Of a stretch of 64,000 bases of DNA, positions 57,166-64,000 are shown piece by piece; within the stretch, counting starts at the first letter, position 1, and each line of letters begins with the position of its first letter. Under the pieces are notes generated by a model. It had not been told where the DNA came from and ran no database searches. It was given only the letters and a program-made list of their open reading frames with translations. A program made the position numbers and the translations under genes. Source of the stretch: Klebsiella phage phiKp_32; the sequence record LC768500.1. One strand, 5' to 3'.

Positions 57166-58605
57166 ATGCAACCTACTAATATTACGTTATTGAACCCAAA
57201 CAAAGTGGCTTGGGCTCTCATGAAAGCCGTGACGTCAACAGACGTCCATGAGGGGATGACCAACAACCTTCATGAAGATGGTTTATACTCTCCAACAATC
57301 TTCGGTCGTGTCGGTACCGACCAACGAGATAAAACTCAATCTTACATCAATGTTAAGATTCCTGTCTTCAACCCGACTTATTTTAAGGCTTTGATTGGGT
57401 TAAAGGGTTTGTATCTCGGAATAATCAAAGGGACGGAATACGCCCTTTGGGACGCATCAGAACGCGACTTCATAAAATCAAACCTCCTGGAAGGAGAAAC
57501 CGGCTACAGTTTCTTTATGCGTCACTTTTACGACTTAGAGCCTAAGTTAAACGAAAGTTATAAACGCAAACAGCGCGTAGAACTCTTTAATAAATTTAAA
57601 GACATCGCGTTGACTAAAAACATCATTGTCCTGCCGGCTGGTATTCGCGATATTCAAATAGAACCTAACGGACAAATCGTCGAGCCTGAAATAAATGATT
57701 TCTATCGTAAACTGATCTTCCGTAGTCGCAGCGTGGTTATCCAGGAAGGTGAAGAAGATAATCCGATTTACGATAACATCCGTTGGGCGATTCAAAGCGT
57801 GTTTAACGATATCGATGATTATATCTTCCGACTGATGGAAGGTAAGCGTGGATTCTTACAGCGCCGAGTCTCAACTCGTGGTGTCGTCGGGGGTACTCGT
57901 AACGTTATTACCGCTCGTAAAGTTTCTGTTGCTGATGCGGATGATGATAATGGGGTTGACGTTAACACCACAGATATCGGGATGTATCAAGCGCTGTTGG
58001 GTTTCCAATACGTTGCACGATATGCGTTACTTAAAGGTTTCTTAAGCCGCGTGTTTACGGTAGGGTCAAGTACGGCTAAACTCGTCGACCCCAGAACCTT
58101 TGAATATCAATACGTTGAAGTTGAGAGCAACATTGTTGACAAATGGTTGTCAGCCGATGGACTCACCGCTTTGTTCAACGGATTCGGCACCAGGCACTTG
58201 CGTCATAAACCGATCAAAATCAACGGTTATTACATGGGCCTGACCTATGATGACGGTAAATATGTCAAGTTACTCGGTGACGTAACCGAACTTCCTCCTG
58301 GGTTTGATAAGAAGTTCTGCAAACCATTGACTTACATGGAACTCTTCTATTTAAGTTGTGTCGAAGAAATAGAAAAGAGGATGCTTCAGGTTACCCGTTA
58401 TCCGATTACTGGGATGGGGTCCATCTATCCTAGCTTCATCAAAATCAAAACAACGACTAACGCCCAAAAAAGAATTATTTTAGATGATTACTGGGAAGAA
58501 GGTTATCGTTGCACATACTACCCAGTCAGAGAAACTAAACCAGATTATTTCGACGCCATGAGTGTCGATGGTAGTCGGTTAGGATTACTCGGCGGGGACT
58601 TCGAT
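57166..58605 (+). CDS. RNA polymerase beta' subunit N-terminal fragment, exon 1 (ends ...GGDFD)
   Basis: Aligns with bacterial beta': IIVLPAGIRDIQIEPNG vs [33 protein letters not shown] vs DLYRRVINRNNRL; GKRGFLQRRVSTRGVVGGTRNVITARKVSV vs [26 protein letters not shown]; terminal DGSRLGLLGGDFD vs NADFDGD. Confidence 0.85.
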
Positions 58606-58985
58606 TGATTGCAAATCACATTTGCACAGTCCCACTAGACGCGAAAGCTCTAGTGCGTATCTCCTTGAATTGTCTGGGAAGCTCACAAAAGTCTGATGCC
58701 TGCTTAGCAGGAGCCGATAAGGCAGAAATAAGTTCAGACCTGACCTATGCTAAACAATAAGGCTAAGGGTTATTAACAAGGGGCCATCAGCAGCGAACCC
58801 TACTTCGGTAGGAGACGTTCAACGACTAGAGCGGAAGCGCTCGTACTCTTTACAGGGAGTAAAGAGGAAGTGGGGAGAGGGCTAAGTTCGGCACTAGCCG
58901 AATACGTCTAAGATATAGTCTCGACGTCCAAGGTAAGACTTGGAGTACGCTAAAGCGTAGGGGTGTGGAAACACCTTAAGAACCG
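58606..58985 (+). mobile_element. group I intron (ORF-less, 380 nt) in the beta' gene
   Basis: R element GTTCAACGACTAGA (58817-58830) and S element CTAAGATATAGTC (58908-58920) form a P7 pairing. A P-like element TGAATTGTCTGGGAAG lies near 58676. The 5' exon ends in U and the intron ends in G (58985). Joining the exons restores DFD|GDQ. Confidence 0.8.
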
Positions 58986-59159
58986 GGCGACCAGTTGAAT
59001 TCTAATTCAATCAACGGAGAGGATGCTATTGCTGAAGCTAAAGCTTTAATGGGCAGACGCGATTACTATATCACCGGCACGGGGCAGTTCCTTTACAGTC
59101 CAACGGTGGAACCTCACGAATTCTTATTCCGAAATCTCAGTAACGGACTCAACCTATGA
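58986..59159 (+). CDS. RNA polymerase beta' N-terminal fragment, exon 2 (GDQLNSNSINGEDAIAEAKALMGRR...*)
   Basis: Begins GDQ, completing the DFDGDQ motif. The 22-aa span to EAKALM matches E. coli [22 protein letters not shown] in length. The stop overlaps the beta-gene ATG (ATGA). Confidence 0.75.
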   Translation, partial: GDQLNSNSINGEDAIAEAKALMGRRDYYITGTGQFLYSPTVEPHEFLFRNLSNGLNL

Positions 59160-62100: not shown

Positions 62101-62308
62101 TCAGCAAGAGAACTATGCTGGGGTTATCTCCGAGGCTGGTAAAGACTCCGGTAAAGTTGGGTTCGTGAGTTACTTAACGAGCAACCCTAAGATCGCCGAT
62201 TTCCGTGGTAACGTCGACCTAAGCATGCCTGACACTCTGAGCGGCAGACTGTCGGTAACATCCAACCTTTTAGCTCACTCGACCTCCGATGACCCAAAAC
62301 GGTTAACT
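59156..62308 (+). CDS. RNA polymerase beta subunit (or N-terminal fragment), exon 1
   Basis: NPIHEIKEQEVVTFGGTGG vs NPLSEITHKRRISALGPGG; GKVGFVSYLTSNPKIADFRG vs [38 protein letters not shown] vs SVGASLIPFLEHDDANRAL. Acidic low-complexity insert near the N-terminus. Confidence 0.8.
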
Positions 62309-63742
62309 GTAATATTTTCCTGAGTACAATATTATGTTGAGACTCAGGAGCAAATTAAGATGAAACCAATTGAGTGTAAAGATTTTCCAGGGTATTACGA
62401 GATACCCAATTTTTCCAAGTACTGCATTAATAAAAAATCAGATATTATTCATAAACGCAAAAACAAAAAAATCAGACAGTACGACGTTAAATCTTCTGTG
62501 ACGTCCAGGCCAGAAACCGGGTGTTATAAAAGAGTGACGATGTATTCTGATGATAAAAAACTCCACGCCTTTTCGGTCCATCGGTTAATGGGCTTGGTGT
62601 TTAAACATCCTGGTGCCGGGTTTCACTCTCTACAGGTCCACCACGGAGATGGGATAAAATTTCATAACGACATCGATAACTTAGAATGGGTTACACCCAA
62701 GACCAATATTGTTTTAGCAAACGATTATTACATGGGTAAAGCTAAAATACCTGTCCAAGCTAGGTCTAAAAACGGTGAAGTTCTAAATTTTTCTAATCTA
62801 AGTGATTGTGCTAAATTACTCGGGATCCATAGGACAACCCTTATCTCCAGATTAAGTACGTTTGGAGAAAAGTTTGTTCACCCAGAGGGCTATCAACTGA
62901 GGTACGGAAATTCCGATAAGCCATGGGTTGCACCAGACGAAGAATCAGCTAAGGACTTAGATGAGTTTTACTCGTCACCCATTTTGGTAAAAAATCTCAA
63001 CACTGGCGAAGTGAGGGAATTTAAAACAGCCAAAGGCGTGATGGAATTAATAGTAAGATCTCCGTCAAGCATAAGTACTTTGAGTAATGATTCGACTCAA
63101 CCCATTGTGATGGGTAAAGATAACGTACCGTACATTCTCATAAAAAAATATTCTGGGGTCGATTTCAGGAGAGTTGACGATCCAATGAATGATTTTGTCG
63201 AACAACAGACCAATACCAGAACGGTAGTTGCGACGAATGTTACGACTAATGAAAAGAGAGTTTATACGACCGCGCAGGCGTGCGCATCTGATTTTGGAAT
63301 AGGAAAAACTACACTTAATTGGCGTCTTAAGAAACCCATCCCTGGTGTTTTCGACGGATGGATTTTTAGATATTACGAGGCCCGTATGGGAGGAAACACC
63401 CATACGCAATAATCTTTAATTGTTCTGGGACGATCTCGAAGACTCTCATACCAAAGCGGAATACGAAAGTATAGACGTCATGGTTTTAAAAGTTGAGAAG
63501 AGAGACGATCTAGCAGCGAAGCACCTACGTATCTTCGAGAGAAGAGATAGGGTGAACGTTCAACGACTATGGGTGAAACTCCCAGTAGATTTTACATGAA
63601 GTAATTTCGAAACAGGATTCCCTTCGAGTGAGCTGAAGAAGCTCGATACTCATGGGTGAAATATAGTCTGCTCCCTACGGCGACGTAGCGGCGGGTGTCA
63701 TAGCACACCGGGTTGAAGGAAGCAACCGGACATAAGGCTCTG
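62309..63742 (+). mobile_element. group I intron carrying an HNH homing endonuclease gene, inserted in the beta gene (boundaries +/-6 nt)
   Basis: R element GTTCAACGACTAT (63558-63570) and S element GAAATATAGTC (63658-63669). The downstream frame encodes HKALFSGVQQSQGVSA, which continues the E. coli beta [15 protein letters not shown] alignment. The track ORF 59156..62323 runs into the intron and terminates at 62323. Confidence 0.75.
62360..63412 (+). CDS. intron-encoded HNH homing endonuclease
   Basis: LQVHHGDGIKFHNDIDNLEWVTPKTN HNH motif; RBS ctcaggagcaaattaagATG; located between the 5' splice site and the intron catalytic core. Confidence 0.8.
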   Translation: MKPIECKDFPGYYEIPNFSKYCINKKSDIIHKRKNKKIRQYDVKSSVTSRPETGCYKRVTMYSDDKKLHAFSVHRLMGLVFKHPGAGFHSLQVHHGDGIKFHNDIDNLEWVTPKTNIVLANDYYMGKAKIPVQARSKNGEVLNFSNLSDCAKLLGIHRTTLISRLSTFGEKFVHPEGYQLRYGNSDKPWVAPDEESAKDLDEFYSSPILVKNLNTGEVREFKTAKGVMELIVRSPSSISTLSNDSTQPIVMGKDNVPYILIKKYSGVDFRRVDDPMNDFVEQQTNTRTVVATNVTTNEKRVYTTAQACASDFGIGKTTLNWRLKKPIPGVFDGWIFRYYEARMGGNTHTQ

Positions 63743-64000
63743 TTCTCCGGGGTTCAGCAAAGCCAGGGGGTGTCTGCGACTAACTATCAGACCAACTGGT
63801 TACGTACCGGGGATGAATTGGTTATCGCACACCGGACATCCGAGCTTTATTCTAAACCAGCTAAACTCGACGGTAAAGTAATAAAGCTTACCAAAGAAGG
63901 CTTGGTGGTCGAATACAAGGATGGAACGACGGACAGTTATCCGTTAGGCTTAACCATCGGCAGTGCGTCTGGTGAATTCCACAGACACACAAGAGTCACT
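63743..64000 (+). CDS. RNA polymerase beta, exon 2 (3'-truncated at the window edge)
   Basis: FSGVQQSQGVSATNYQTNWLRTGDELVIAHRTSELYSKPAKLDGKVIKL... parallels E. coli [42 protein letters not shown]; open to the end of the window. Confidence 0.7.

Follow-up and report, generated by a model that had tools for sequence, protein, structure and literature searches.

Two group I introns in adjacent virion RNA polymerase genes and four free-standing HNH endonuclease genes in a Miamivirus-like jumbo phage

Introduction

The nicking homing endonuclease gp210 of phage PhiPA3 cuts an intron-less RNA polymerase gene and gives PhiPA3 an edge over phiKZ in co-infection (Birkholz et al., Science 2024; PMC11620839). 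The intron concerned lies immediately after two aspartates, and the PhiPA3 annotation ties the interrupted beta-like gene to phiKZ gp178 and to EL gp186/187, a virion RNA polymerase subunit (PMC11620839). Here, we describe a 64,000-nucleotide (nt) stretch of Klebsiella phage phiKp_32 (LC768500.1; the whole stretch is hereafter the window), a Miamivirus-like nucleus-forming jumbo phage (Chimalliviridae), in which group I introns interrupt two adjacent virion RNA polymerase genes. One of these introns contains an HNH endonuclease gene, and four further HNH genes are free-standing.

The same adjacent genes are interrupted in phage EL (Elvirus; gp184-gp187), beside the same giant virion protein gene; both EL introns match the Rfam group I intron model (RF00028), and EL intron 1 occupies a site identical to that of intron 1 of the window (D-x-D/GDQL, with the slash marking the insertion point here and below). 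Endonuclease occupancy in EL is nevertheless the reverse of that in the window: intron 1 holds an HNH gene (gp185), and intron 2 lacks one. The second EL intron lies at DD/ rather than DDPKR/, and only parts of the sequences match the window introns, at ∼71% identity for intron 1 and 87% for intron 2.

Several group I introns and many free-standing homing endonuclease genes also occur together in another large lytic phage, T4, where presence/absence polymorphism among relatives and sequestration of ribosome-binding sites are likewise found. The T4 introns in td, nrdB, and nrdD reportedly encode I-TevI, I-TevII, and I-TevIII, alongside the free-standing Seg and Mob endonucleases, as Edgell, Gibb and Belfort are said to have described in 2010. 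Endonuclease-less or defective T4 introns can be moved by a neighboring endonuclease, as in trans homing by mobE (PMC2790892). T4 differs in having GIY-YIG or defective HNH intron endonucleases and nucleotide-metabolism host genes, whereas the window has RNA polymerase subunits as host genes and HNH_3 (I-HmuI-like) endonucleases throughout. The nicking HNH_3 and NUMOD/helix-turn-helix architecture is shared with I-HmuI and I-HmuII of SPO1/SP82, I-BasI of Bastille, and I-TwoI of Twort, and in that system too, related phages have similar introns at neighboring sites with divergent open reading frames (ORFs). The host genes there are DNA polymerase and nrdE, the host phyla are different, and the sequence relationship is only distant.

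Results

Two introns in adjacent RNA polymerase genes

Positions 57166-64000 of the window match six phage records at 95-97% identity. Five relatives were compared: Klebsiella phages Miami (two deposits), KPN8, and YC1, Stenotrophomonas phage BUCTxx100, and Raoultella phage VB_ZK_P1. A giant minus-strand ORF (50339-57145) and the next two genes are collinear with Miami genes 231-233, and Miami 232 and 233 (CPT_Miami_232 and CPT_Miami_233) are annotated as RNA polymerase beta subunits. The two genes are laid out in the window as follows.

57166-58605, plus strand: exon 1 of the beta'-like virion RNA polymerase gene, collinear with CPT_Miami_232; ends in ...GGDFD, last codon GAU
58606-58985, plus strand: intron 1, a 380-nt group I intron with an RF00028 match and no ORF; last base G58985
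58986-59159, plus strand: exon 2 of the beta'-like gene, GDQLNS...NL and stop
59156-62303, plus strand: exon 1 of the beta-like virion RNA polymerase gene, collinear with CPT_Miami_233; ends in ...STSDDPKR
62304-63737, plus strand: intron 2, a 1434-nt group I intron with an RF00028 match and an endonuclease gene in its P1 loop; alternative in-frame bounds 62303-63736
62360-63412, plus strand: HNH E, an intron-encoded HNH endonuclease of 350 amino acids (Pfam HNH_3 and NUMOD1; PHROG 59)
63738-64000, plus strand: start of exon 2 of the beta-like gene, aligning to Miami from 63737 onward and continuing past the window end

The explanation that we regard as very probable is that the window holds two independent group I introns, both self-splicing, in adjacent virion RNA polymerase genes and four free-standing HNH genes, six selfish elements in all, taken from a common pool of the nucleus-forming jumbo phages. 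By model match and covariation, both intervening elements are real group I introns. Intron 1 matches RF00028 at 58613-58943 (37.5 bits, E 5.6e-6 for the whole window), the core of intron 2 matches at 63354-63690 (51.9 bits, over the gathering score of 50), and a search of the 64-kb window with this model at E<=0.01 returned nothing beyond the two introns. A consensus structure computed with RNAalifold from 10 related introns has 52 pairs, 36 of which show compensatory changes. Helices P2, P4/P6, P7, P7.1, P8, P9.1, and P9.2 are recovered in this fold and kept by both window introns; the P7.1 hairpin covaries in both, and P7.2 was recognized by eye only.

The insertions are precise, and each lies within a motif that is conserved in an essential enzyme. 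Both introns are absent, precisely, from Miami, KPN8, YC1, and BUCTxx100 (4/4). Intron 1 splits the catalytic motif of the beta'-like gene at DFD/GD, and in alignment with Miami, window position 58605 joins 58986 after 17 diverged bases. Excision of 58606-58985 yields ...GGDFD/GDQLNSNSING..., with the last 80 residues identical to Miami and four substitutions over the 538 residues of the spliced beta' protein, none of them near the junction. The predicted splice junction is GACUUCGAU joined to GGCGACCAG. The minimum free energy (MFE) fold of the 5' end (z -3.95) and the position of the core place the following elements in intron 1.

58603-58607 paired with 58627-58631, plus strand: P1 (MFE fold), with a U58605-G58629 wobble at the splice site
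58610-58626, plus strand: perfect 7-bp hairpin in the P1 loop (MFE fold)
58633-58655, plus strand: P2 (MFE fold)
58817-58828, plus strand: 5' strand of P7

The U58605-G58629 wobble coincides with the splice site fixed by the reading frame.

Sequences 71-75% identical to intron 1 over 200-310 nt were found in VB_ZK_P1 (its intron 1), Proteus phage 7, Salmonella SaP7, Vibrio phage 2 TSL-2019, Photobacterium PDCC-1, and Pseudomonas phage EL. In Proteus phage 7 (L008:2134-3340) and Vibrio phage 2 TSL-2019 (L010:2960-3351), these relatives interrupt a second, different beta'-like gene, at or beside its DFDGD motif. The gene adjoins that of the nuclear shell protein in the Vibrio phage, and both records label the interrupted pieces as separate or hypothetical proteins. 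A donor search of the IMG/VR viral contigs with an exact 23-mer from the intron 1 core returned no match. The ORF-bearing intron 1 of VB_ZK_P1 was considered as a parent from which intron 1 arose by simple deletion, and was rejected, as the shared part is only 67% identical and the sites are 6 nt apart.

Intron 2 and its endonuclease

Intron 2 splits the beta-like gene at DDPKR/, and Miami has a single base in its place (window 62301 joins 63737, with one base between). The Miami-type intron-less beta allele reads GACCCCAAACGTGCTCTG at this site (…GACCCCAAACGTGCTCTGTTC…). The junction is ambiguous by one base, and both options are in frame with Miami, giving DDPKR(A/S)LFSG. In the preferred option, splicing occurs after U62303 and G63737 (AAACGGU/CUCUGUUC), a U62303-G63380 wobble forms, and the product reads KRSLFSG; in the alternative (62302/, 63736/; AAACGG/GCUCUGUUC), Miami's KRALFSG is kept without a U-G wobble. 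Correspondingly, the last base of exon 1 is U62303 or G62302. In the preferred model, the guide GAG/GCC is a continuous complement of exon 1 ...GGU and exon 2 CUC..., and the GGU...AAGG/C pattern recurs in the Aeromonas phages CF8 and PS1, which share both the insertion site and the guide of intron 2. We consider the preferred option probable. The core elements of intron 2 are as follows.

63377-63382, plus strand: guide GAG/GCC, pairing with exon 1 GGU and exon 2 CUC (read from the sequence)
63383-63406, plus strand: P2
63558-63569, plus strand: 5' strand of P7

Intron 2 is 97% identical to intron 2 of VB_ZK_P1. Over the whole core, it is 72-74% identical to introns of the Aeromonas phages CF8, PS1, and PS2, and there are partial matches in EL and phiKZ-like phages.

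The preliminary description of this DNA, made from its letters alone, had one intron carrying an HNH gene and the other without an ORF, and this holds: the 350-residue HNH ORF at 62360-63412 lies within intron 2, and intron 1 has none. HNH E matches Pfam HNH_3 (E 3.7e-5, 23.7 bits against a cut-off of 24.8), NUMOD1 (25.1 bits, cut-off 22.8), and helix-turn-helix models, and belongs to PHROG 59 (E 2.8e-26). It is 100% identical in VB_ZK_P1; its best external matches are in Serratia phage 2050HW-like phages and PhiPA3, and I-TwoI is a detectable homolog. In Miami (MT701590.1), tblastn located a 24%-identical HNH E homolog, covering 82% of the query, at 235947-236771, where no gene is annotated.

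The last ∼12 codons of HNH E overlap the guide and P2 of the intron 2 ribozyme, and upstream of the gene a hairpin covers the ribosome-binding site.

62317-62350, plus strand: hairpin over the HNH E ribosome-binding site, with AGGAG (62346-62350) paired with 62317-62321; MFE -18.8 kcal/mol

This hairpin has a z score of -3.75, and none of 200 shuffles was as stable. In the td/I-TevI system of T4, the ribosome-binding site of the endonuclease gene is sequestered as well. By analogy, HNH E translation may be limited and coupled to RNA folding.

HNH E aligns with PhiPA3 gp210 over 342 residues, or 96% of its length, at 29% identity (E 8e-27), and its H94 and HNH motif line up with the motif that contains the gp210 active-site histidine, H82 (PMC11620839). 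The two loci have in common a group I intron in the homologous beta-like gene, an HNH gene upstream of P2, a guide directly 5' of P2, and intron-less alleles in close relatives. They differ in position, as the PhiPA3 intron lies at DD/ with guide GUC and that of the window 9-10 nt downstream at DDPKR/ with guide GCC, and the PhiPA3 intron core belongs to a different sub-lineage from intron 2. Moreover, nicking, nuclear import, and a competitive effect have been established for gp210 only.

Guide, P1 architecture, and insertion sites

In both introns, a guide trinucleotide directly 5' of P2 (GUC in intron 1, GCC in intron 2) pairs with the last three exon bases, and this pairing, with GAU in intron 1 or GGU in intron 2, forms the splice-site U-G wobble (both read from the sequence). 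Across nine introns read by eye, positions +1 and +2 of the intron covary with the bases 5' of the guide: UG with CA in intron 1, UAG with UUA in EL intron 1, AG with CU in Vibrio phage 2 TSL-2019, UGAG with CUCA in EL intron 2, UGU with ACA in PhiPA3, and AA with UU in CF8. The introns of Proteus phage 7 (5' exon not placed) and FishSpeaker (P1 not placed) were left out of this comparison. Where endonuclease genes are present (EL intron 1, VB_ZK_P1 intron 1, PhiPA3, and intron 2), they sit between the 5' strand of P1 and the guide, i.e., in the P1 loop. The insertion sites compare as follows.

Beta'-like gene, NAD/FDGD: Vibrio phage 2 TSL-2019
Beta'-like gene, DFD/GD: window, EL
Beta'-like gene, DFDGD/Q: VB_ZK_P1
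Beta-like gene, DD/: EL, PhiPA3
Beta-like gene, DDPKR/: window, VB_ZK_P1, CF8, PS1

All sites with guide GUC follow a GAU codon and those with guide GCC follow GGU; the PhiPA3 site, after its two aspartates, fits the same guide register.

In the RNAalifold structure, the two final guide bases (UC or CC) also pair with a GA or GG close to the intron 3' end (alignment columns 11-12 with 427-428; window 63381-63382 with 63728-63729). This pairing covaries (CG 4, UA 3, UG 2) and is broken in intron 1; it may represent an alternative interaction imitating the 5' exon.

Relationship between the two introns

The preliminary description took the introns to be related in sequence, with cores near-identical over about 20 nt, and the ORF-less one to be possibly a degenerated or trans-mobilized copy; the alignments and folds support neither a specific relationship, nor near-identity over that length, nor degeneration. 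The two strings that it quoted occur once each, at 58814-58834 and 63554-63575, both inside the RF00028 matches, and what they share is an identical run of 14 nt, ACGTTCAACGACTA. This is the conserved group I J6/7-P7 element (Rfam consensus GUUCAaAGACUA), invariant in 10/10 related introns aligned, so the run indicates only that both are group I introns. A direct BLAST comparison of intron 1 with intron 2 aligned only a 49-nt patch (73%, J6/7-P7) and a 39-nt patch (74%, P3/P4). In an all-vs-all BLAST comparison, one group comprised intron 1, VB_ZK_P1 intron 1, EL intron 1, Vibrio phage 2 TSL-2019, and Proteus phage 7, another comprised intron 2, CF8, and EL intron 2, and no match between intron 1 and intron 2 was found at E<=0.01. 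A domain of ∼70 nt in the P5 region is common to the intron 1 group and absent from the intron 2 group in the multiple alignment. Extra P7.1/P7.2 helices between P7 and P3' mark subgroup IA2, that of typical phage introns; Rfam has one group I model, so that its scores are not specific to subgroups (IA2 vs others). Thus, with nothing aligning outside the conserved core blocks and with each lineage shared with distant chimalliviruses, introns 1 and 2 are distantly related members of a family found across chimalliviruses, and neither one is copied from the other. As for degeneration, intron 1 retains every core helix, and its 19-nt P1 loop consists of a clean hairpin of 7 bp, in which no trace of an ORF is left.

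Intron 2 (63661-63713) and VB_ZK_P1 intron 1 (L002:6112-6162) resemble each other in the 3' tail (P9 region), with 87% identity over 54 nt. Because the remainder of that VB_ZK_P1 intron belongs to the other lineage, it looks chimeric, and the similar tails suggest exchange between intron lineages.

Signs of recent movement

That introns and homing endonucleases form a recently mobile population, much as first proposed for this phage, is supported on three counts. Every element (the two introns and HNH A-D, described below) is a clean presence/absence polymorphism among phages that are 95-97% identical. Around intron 1, two clusters of synonymous changes set the window apart from both Miami and VB_ZK_P1.

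58572-58593, plus strand: synonymous cluster 5' of intron 1, 5 changes
58994-59009, plus strand: synonymous cluster 3' of intron 1, 8 changes

Beyond these clusters, there are 0-1 changes per 50 nt, and no amino-acid change occurs near the junction. The clusters look like a co-conversion or target-immunizing tract, and the diverged flanks apparently show that intron 1 arrived from, or was protected against, a different allele. Intron 1 is 67% identical to that of VB_ZK_P1, in surrounding exons that are 96.5% identical and at a site 6 nt away; from the low identity and the separate sites, it follows that two near-identical phages acquired different intron 1 alleles. Finally, 61990-63589 is nearly identical to VB_ZK_P1, with 6 differences in 1591 positions against 143 in 3394 (4.2%) elsewhere (Fisher p 1.7e-17). 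This 1.6-kb tract spans upstream exon, the HNH E gene, and the intron 2 core, with its right break at or just after P7.

Free-standing HNH genes

Four free-standing HNH genes, beside thyA, tdk, another gene, and structural genes, had been recognized in the preliminary description, and these stand: all are intergenic and in PHROG 59, and three of the four also match Pfam HNH_3.

19248-20243, plus strand: HNH A, 331 amino acids, after thyA (Pfam I-HmuI_NUMOD-like and HNH_3; PHROG 59); inserted block 19238-20308
26260-27228, plus strand: HNH B, 322 amino acids, before tdk (HNH_3; PHROG 59); inserted block 26225-27227
30733-31986, plus strand: HNH C, 417 amino acids, before a RapA-like helicase gene (HNH_3; PHROG 59); inserted block 30725-32219
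47006-48091, minus strand: HNH D, 361 amino acids, between structural genes (PHROG 59, E 2.8e-21); inserted block 47006-48145

HNH D had no Pfam match at 0.01 and is known by PHROG 59 and its similarity to HNH A and C only. The stop codon of HNH B overlaps the tdk start codon (TAATG). All five HNH ORFs, HNH E included, are intact with complete HNH motifs, which in HNH A-D have the form (N/H)H...N...LEW-T...N. In gene-order comparison with Miami, HNH A-D are clean intergenic insertions of 1003-1495 nt, and their distribution among the five relatives is patchy: the blocks of HNH A and HNH C are each absent in 5/5, HNH B is present in VB_ZK_P1, BUCTxx100, and KPN8 (3/5) and absent in Miami and YC1, and HNH D is present in VB_ZK_P1 only (1/5), at 84% DNA and 85% protein identity.

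The description of these genes as paralogs of one family fares less well, although all five proteins fall in PHROG 59. They are pairwise 21-38% identical, and most pairs are similar only around the catalytic motif; HNH A, C, and D have longer shared stretches and an N-terminal PHROG 17657 region. Those tested (A, C, and E) are closer to genes of other phages: the best external match of HNH A is in EL-like phages (154 bits, vs 90 for A-D), and that of HNH C is in Serratia and Klebsiella jumbo phages (104 bits, vs 75 for C-D).

Cryptic intron remnants were not found in the flanks of the four free-standing genes. Rfam searches of 18900-32400 and 46500-48600 at E<=1 gave only chance small RNA matches on terminator hairpins and no group I remnant, and the core motifs GTTCA[AG][AC]GACTA and ATATAGTC never occur together in the window outside the two introns. 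Directly 3' of HNH B, the first 400 nt of tdk (27228-27630) are ∼19% diverged from Miami, vs ∼3% for the 400 nt upstream of the insertion, which is compatible with co-conversion by an endonuclease cutting in tdk. Both flanks of HNH C are diverged, and those of HNH A show nothing.

The HNH insertions adjoin terminator-like hairpins with AATAACT...AGTTATT ends (30660-30700, 32120-32155, and 46930-46970); since the surroundings of HNH C match several places per relative genome, this hairpin type appears to be repeated in intergenic regions. VB_ZK_P1 has two ORFs of 379 amino acids, 86.5% identical to each other (L004:4310-5449 and L004:33855-34994), inserted where the window has nothing (near 3435-3650 and 29236/29237). 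No significant resemblance to the HNH proteins was detected, so these ORFs probably belong to a different family of mobile genes. Additionally, a 343-nt stretch of the window (2929-3271) is absent at that position from Miami and VB_ZK_P1.

Discussion

Introns and free-standing endonuclease genes that are patchily distributed among sister phages follow the paradigm of T4 and SPO1. Of known systems, the PhiPA3 gp210 intron comes nearest to what is found here, and of known arrangements, that of EL gp184-gp187. By homology to PhiPA3 gp210 and I-HmuI, HNH E would nick the intron-less beta alleles of a co-infecting relative, and repair would then copy intron 2 and adjacent exon sequence into the nicked genome; HNH E may also harm competitors that are unable to repair the nick. 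Having no endonuclease gene of its own, intron 1 would have to rely on ordinary recombination or on an endonuclease from another element or phage, and it may spread by means of an endonuclease made elsewhere. For the free-standing HNH genes, "intronless homing" is the probable route, in which genomes without such a gene would be cut near the place where it is inserted.

Several observations weigh against the reading of two independent introns in virion polymerase genes amid a population of mobile endonucleases. Intron 1 scores below the RF00028 gathering score (50 bits), P10 pairing is weak in most relatives, and the preferred intron 2 junction turns a conserved alanine into serine (KRSLF vs KRALF in Miami), which favors the alternative junction. 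In Pfam, neither spliced polymerase protein matched an RNA polymerase domain, or anything else, at E<=0.01, and a PDB sequence search with the beta'-like protein found no match. Because Pfam and PDB gave so little, the identity of the host genes rests on the DFDGD metal-binding catalytic motif of the beta'-like protein, on PHROG assignments to "RNA polymerase beta subunit" (PHROG 2986, E 2.9e-215, for the beta'-like protein and PHROG 3148 for the beta-like protein), on a weak PDB match (Miami beta-like residues 1032-1216 to Thermus RNA polymerase beta 540-713, E 4.5e-5), and on the annotation of relatives. The raised divergence beside HNH B and C could also be ordinary mosaicism. On the other side, nine homologous introns in other phages span 34.5-67.8 bits (the highest being PhiPA3), and several that lie within essential genes score 35-41 bits, so a sub-threshold score such as that of intron 1 is normal for the family. 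The residue after KR is not invariant, being alanine in Miami and EL and valine in PhiPA3, which makes a serine plausible.

If the two introns were copies of one element duplicated in this phage, the ORF-less one having degenerated and the five HNH genes forming a within-genome paralogous family, their common architecture (P7.1, P9 to P9.2, the endonuclease position in the P1 loop), the 14 identical core bases, and the common PHROG 59 membership would be accounted for. We consider this very improbable, given that the introns share only short core patches, that the ∼70-nt domain is in intron 1 only, that relatives of each in other genera are 72-75% identical over 200-330 nt, that the HNH proteins are 21-38% identical with A, C, and E matching better outside the genome, and that intron 1 is free of any ORF remnant. 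Harder still to credit is an absence of introns, with the polymerase subunits split into separate genes by spacers and an HNH gene between two of them. Polymerases of the phiKZ type are indeed split into several polypeptides, and the VB_ZK_P1 and EL records annotate the pieces as separate coding sequences, but the interruptions lie within two motifs, the metal-binding DFDGD and DDxKRA, the genes of sister phages are uninterrupted, the "spacers" match the group I model and covary, and beta' exon 2 would have no start codon at the junction.

Other alternatives concern history and function. Intron 1 may go back to an EL- or VB_ZK_P1-type intron with an endonuclease, whose HNH gene was cleanly lost late in a homing cycle: EL has an HNH gene of 423 amino acids in the P1 loop at the identical site (DHD/GD), and the VB_ZK_P1 intron, located 6 nt downstream, has one of 424 amino acids in its P1 loop, where the window has a 19-nt loop. 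We give this somewhat less than an even chance, since intron 1, being only 67-71% identical to those introns, allows no recent deletion to be traced, since relatives without an ORF are known (Vibrio phage 2 TSL-2019, PDCC-1), and since the perfect, remnant-free loop hairpin would suit an intron that had been ORF-less throughout just as well. That HNH E, and perhaps the free-standing HNHs too, are kept mainly as weapons against co-infecting relatives, and are not purely selfish, is suggested by analogy with PhiPA3, through full-length gp210 homology in the same gene, 9-10 nt from the PhiPA3 site (PMC11620839). The five ORFs are intact with complete HNH motifs, and element content varies between sister phages; patchy distribution is also what purely selfish homing predicts, and we regard the weapon role as rather unlikely. 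More tentative again, and in our view unlikely, is the proposal that the chimallivirus RNA polymerase introns form one recombining family in which a GUC/GCC guide permits codons ending in GAU or GGU in the catalytic motifs of both subunits, implying that site-switching, allele replacement, and module shuffling are ongoing. It is prompted by sisters 95-97% identical that carry alleles 6 nt apart and by the resemblance of the VB_ZK_P1 intron 1 tail to intron 2. The driving force of such switching and shuffling could be mutual attack and immunity among phages in co-infection, of the sort demonstrated for PhiPA3 gp210.

That introns and free-standing HNH genes occupy conserved sites of essential phage genes is textbook knowledge, and a chimallivirus RNA polymerase intron has been published. 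On the reading of two independent introns favored here, the RNA polymerase beta'/beta-like genes of these phages call for annotation as spliced genes, where the public records of EL and of VB_ZK_P1, the closest relative with introns, list separate proteins. Furthermore, the window would add a second genus of chimalliviruses in which a virion polymerase gene holds an intron endonuclease of the gp210 type, at a neighboring site. The intron-plus phages (this phage and VB_ZK_P1) and intron-minus phages (Miami, KPN8, YC1, and BUCTxx100) make up a natural set that would be usable for addressing the generality of the interference competition between PhiPA3 and phiKZ.

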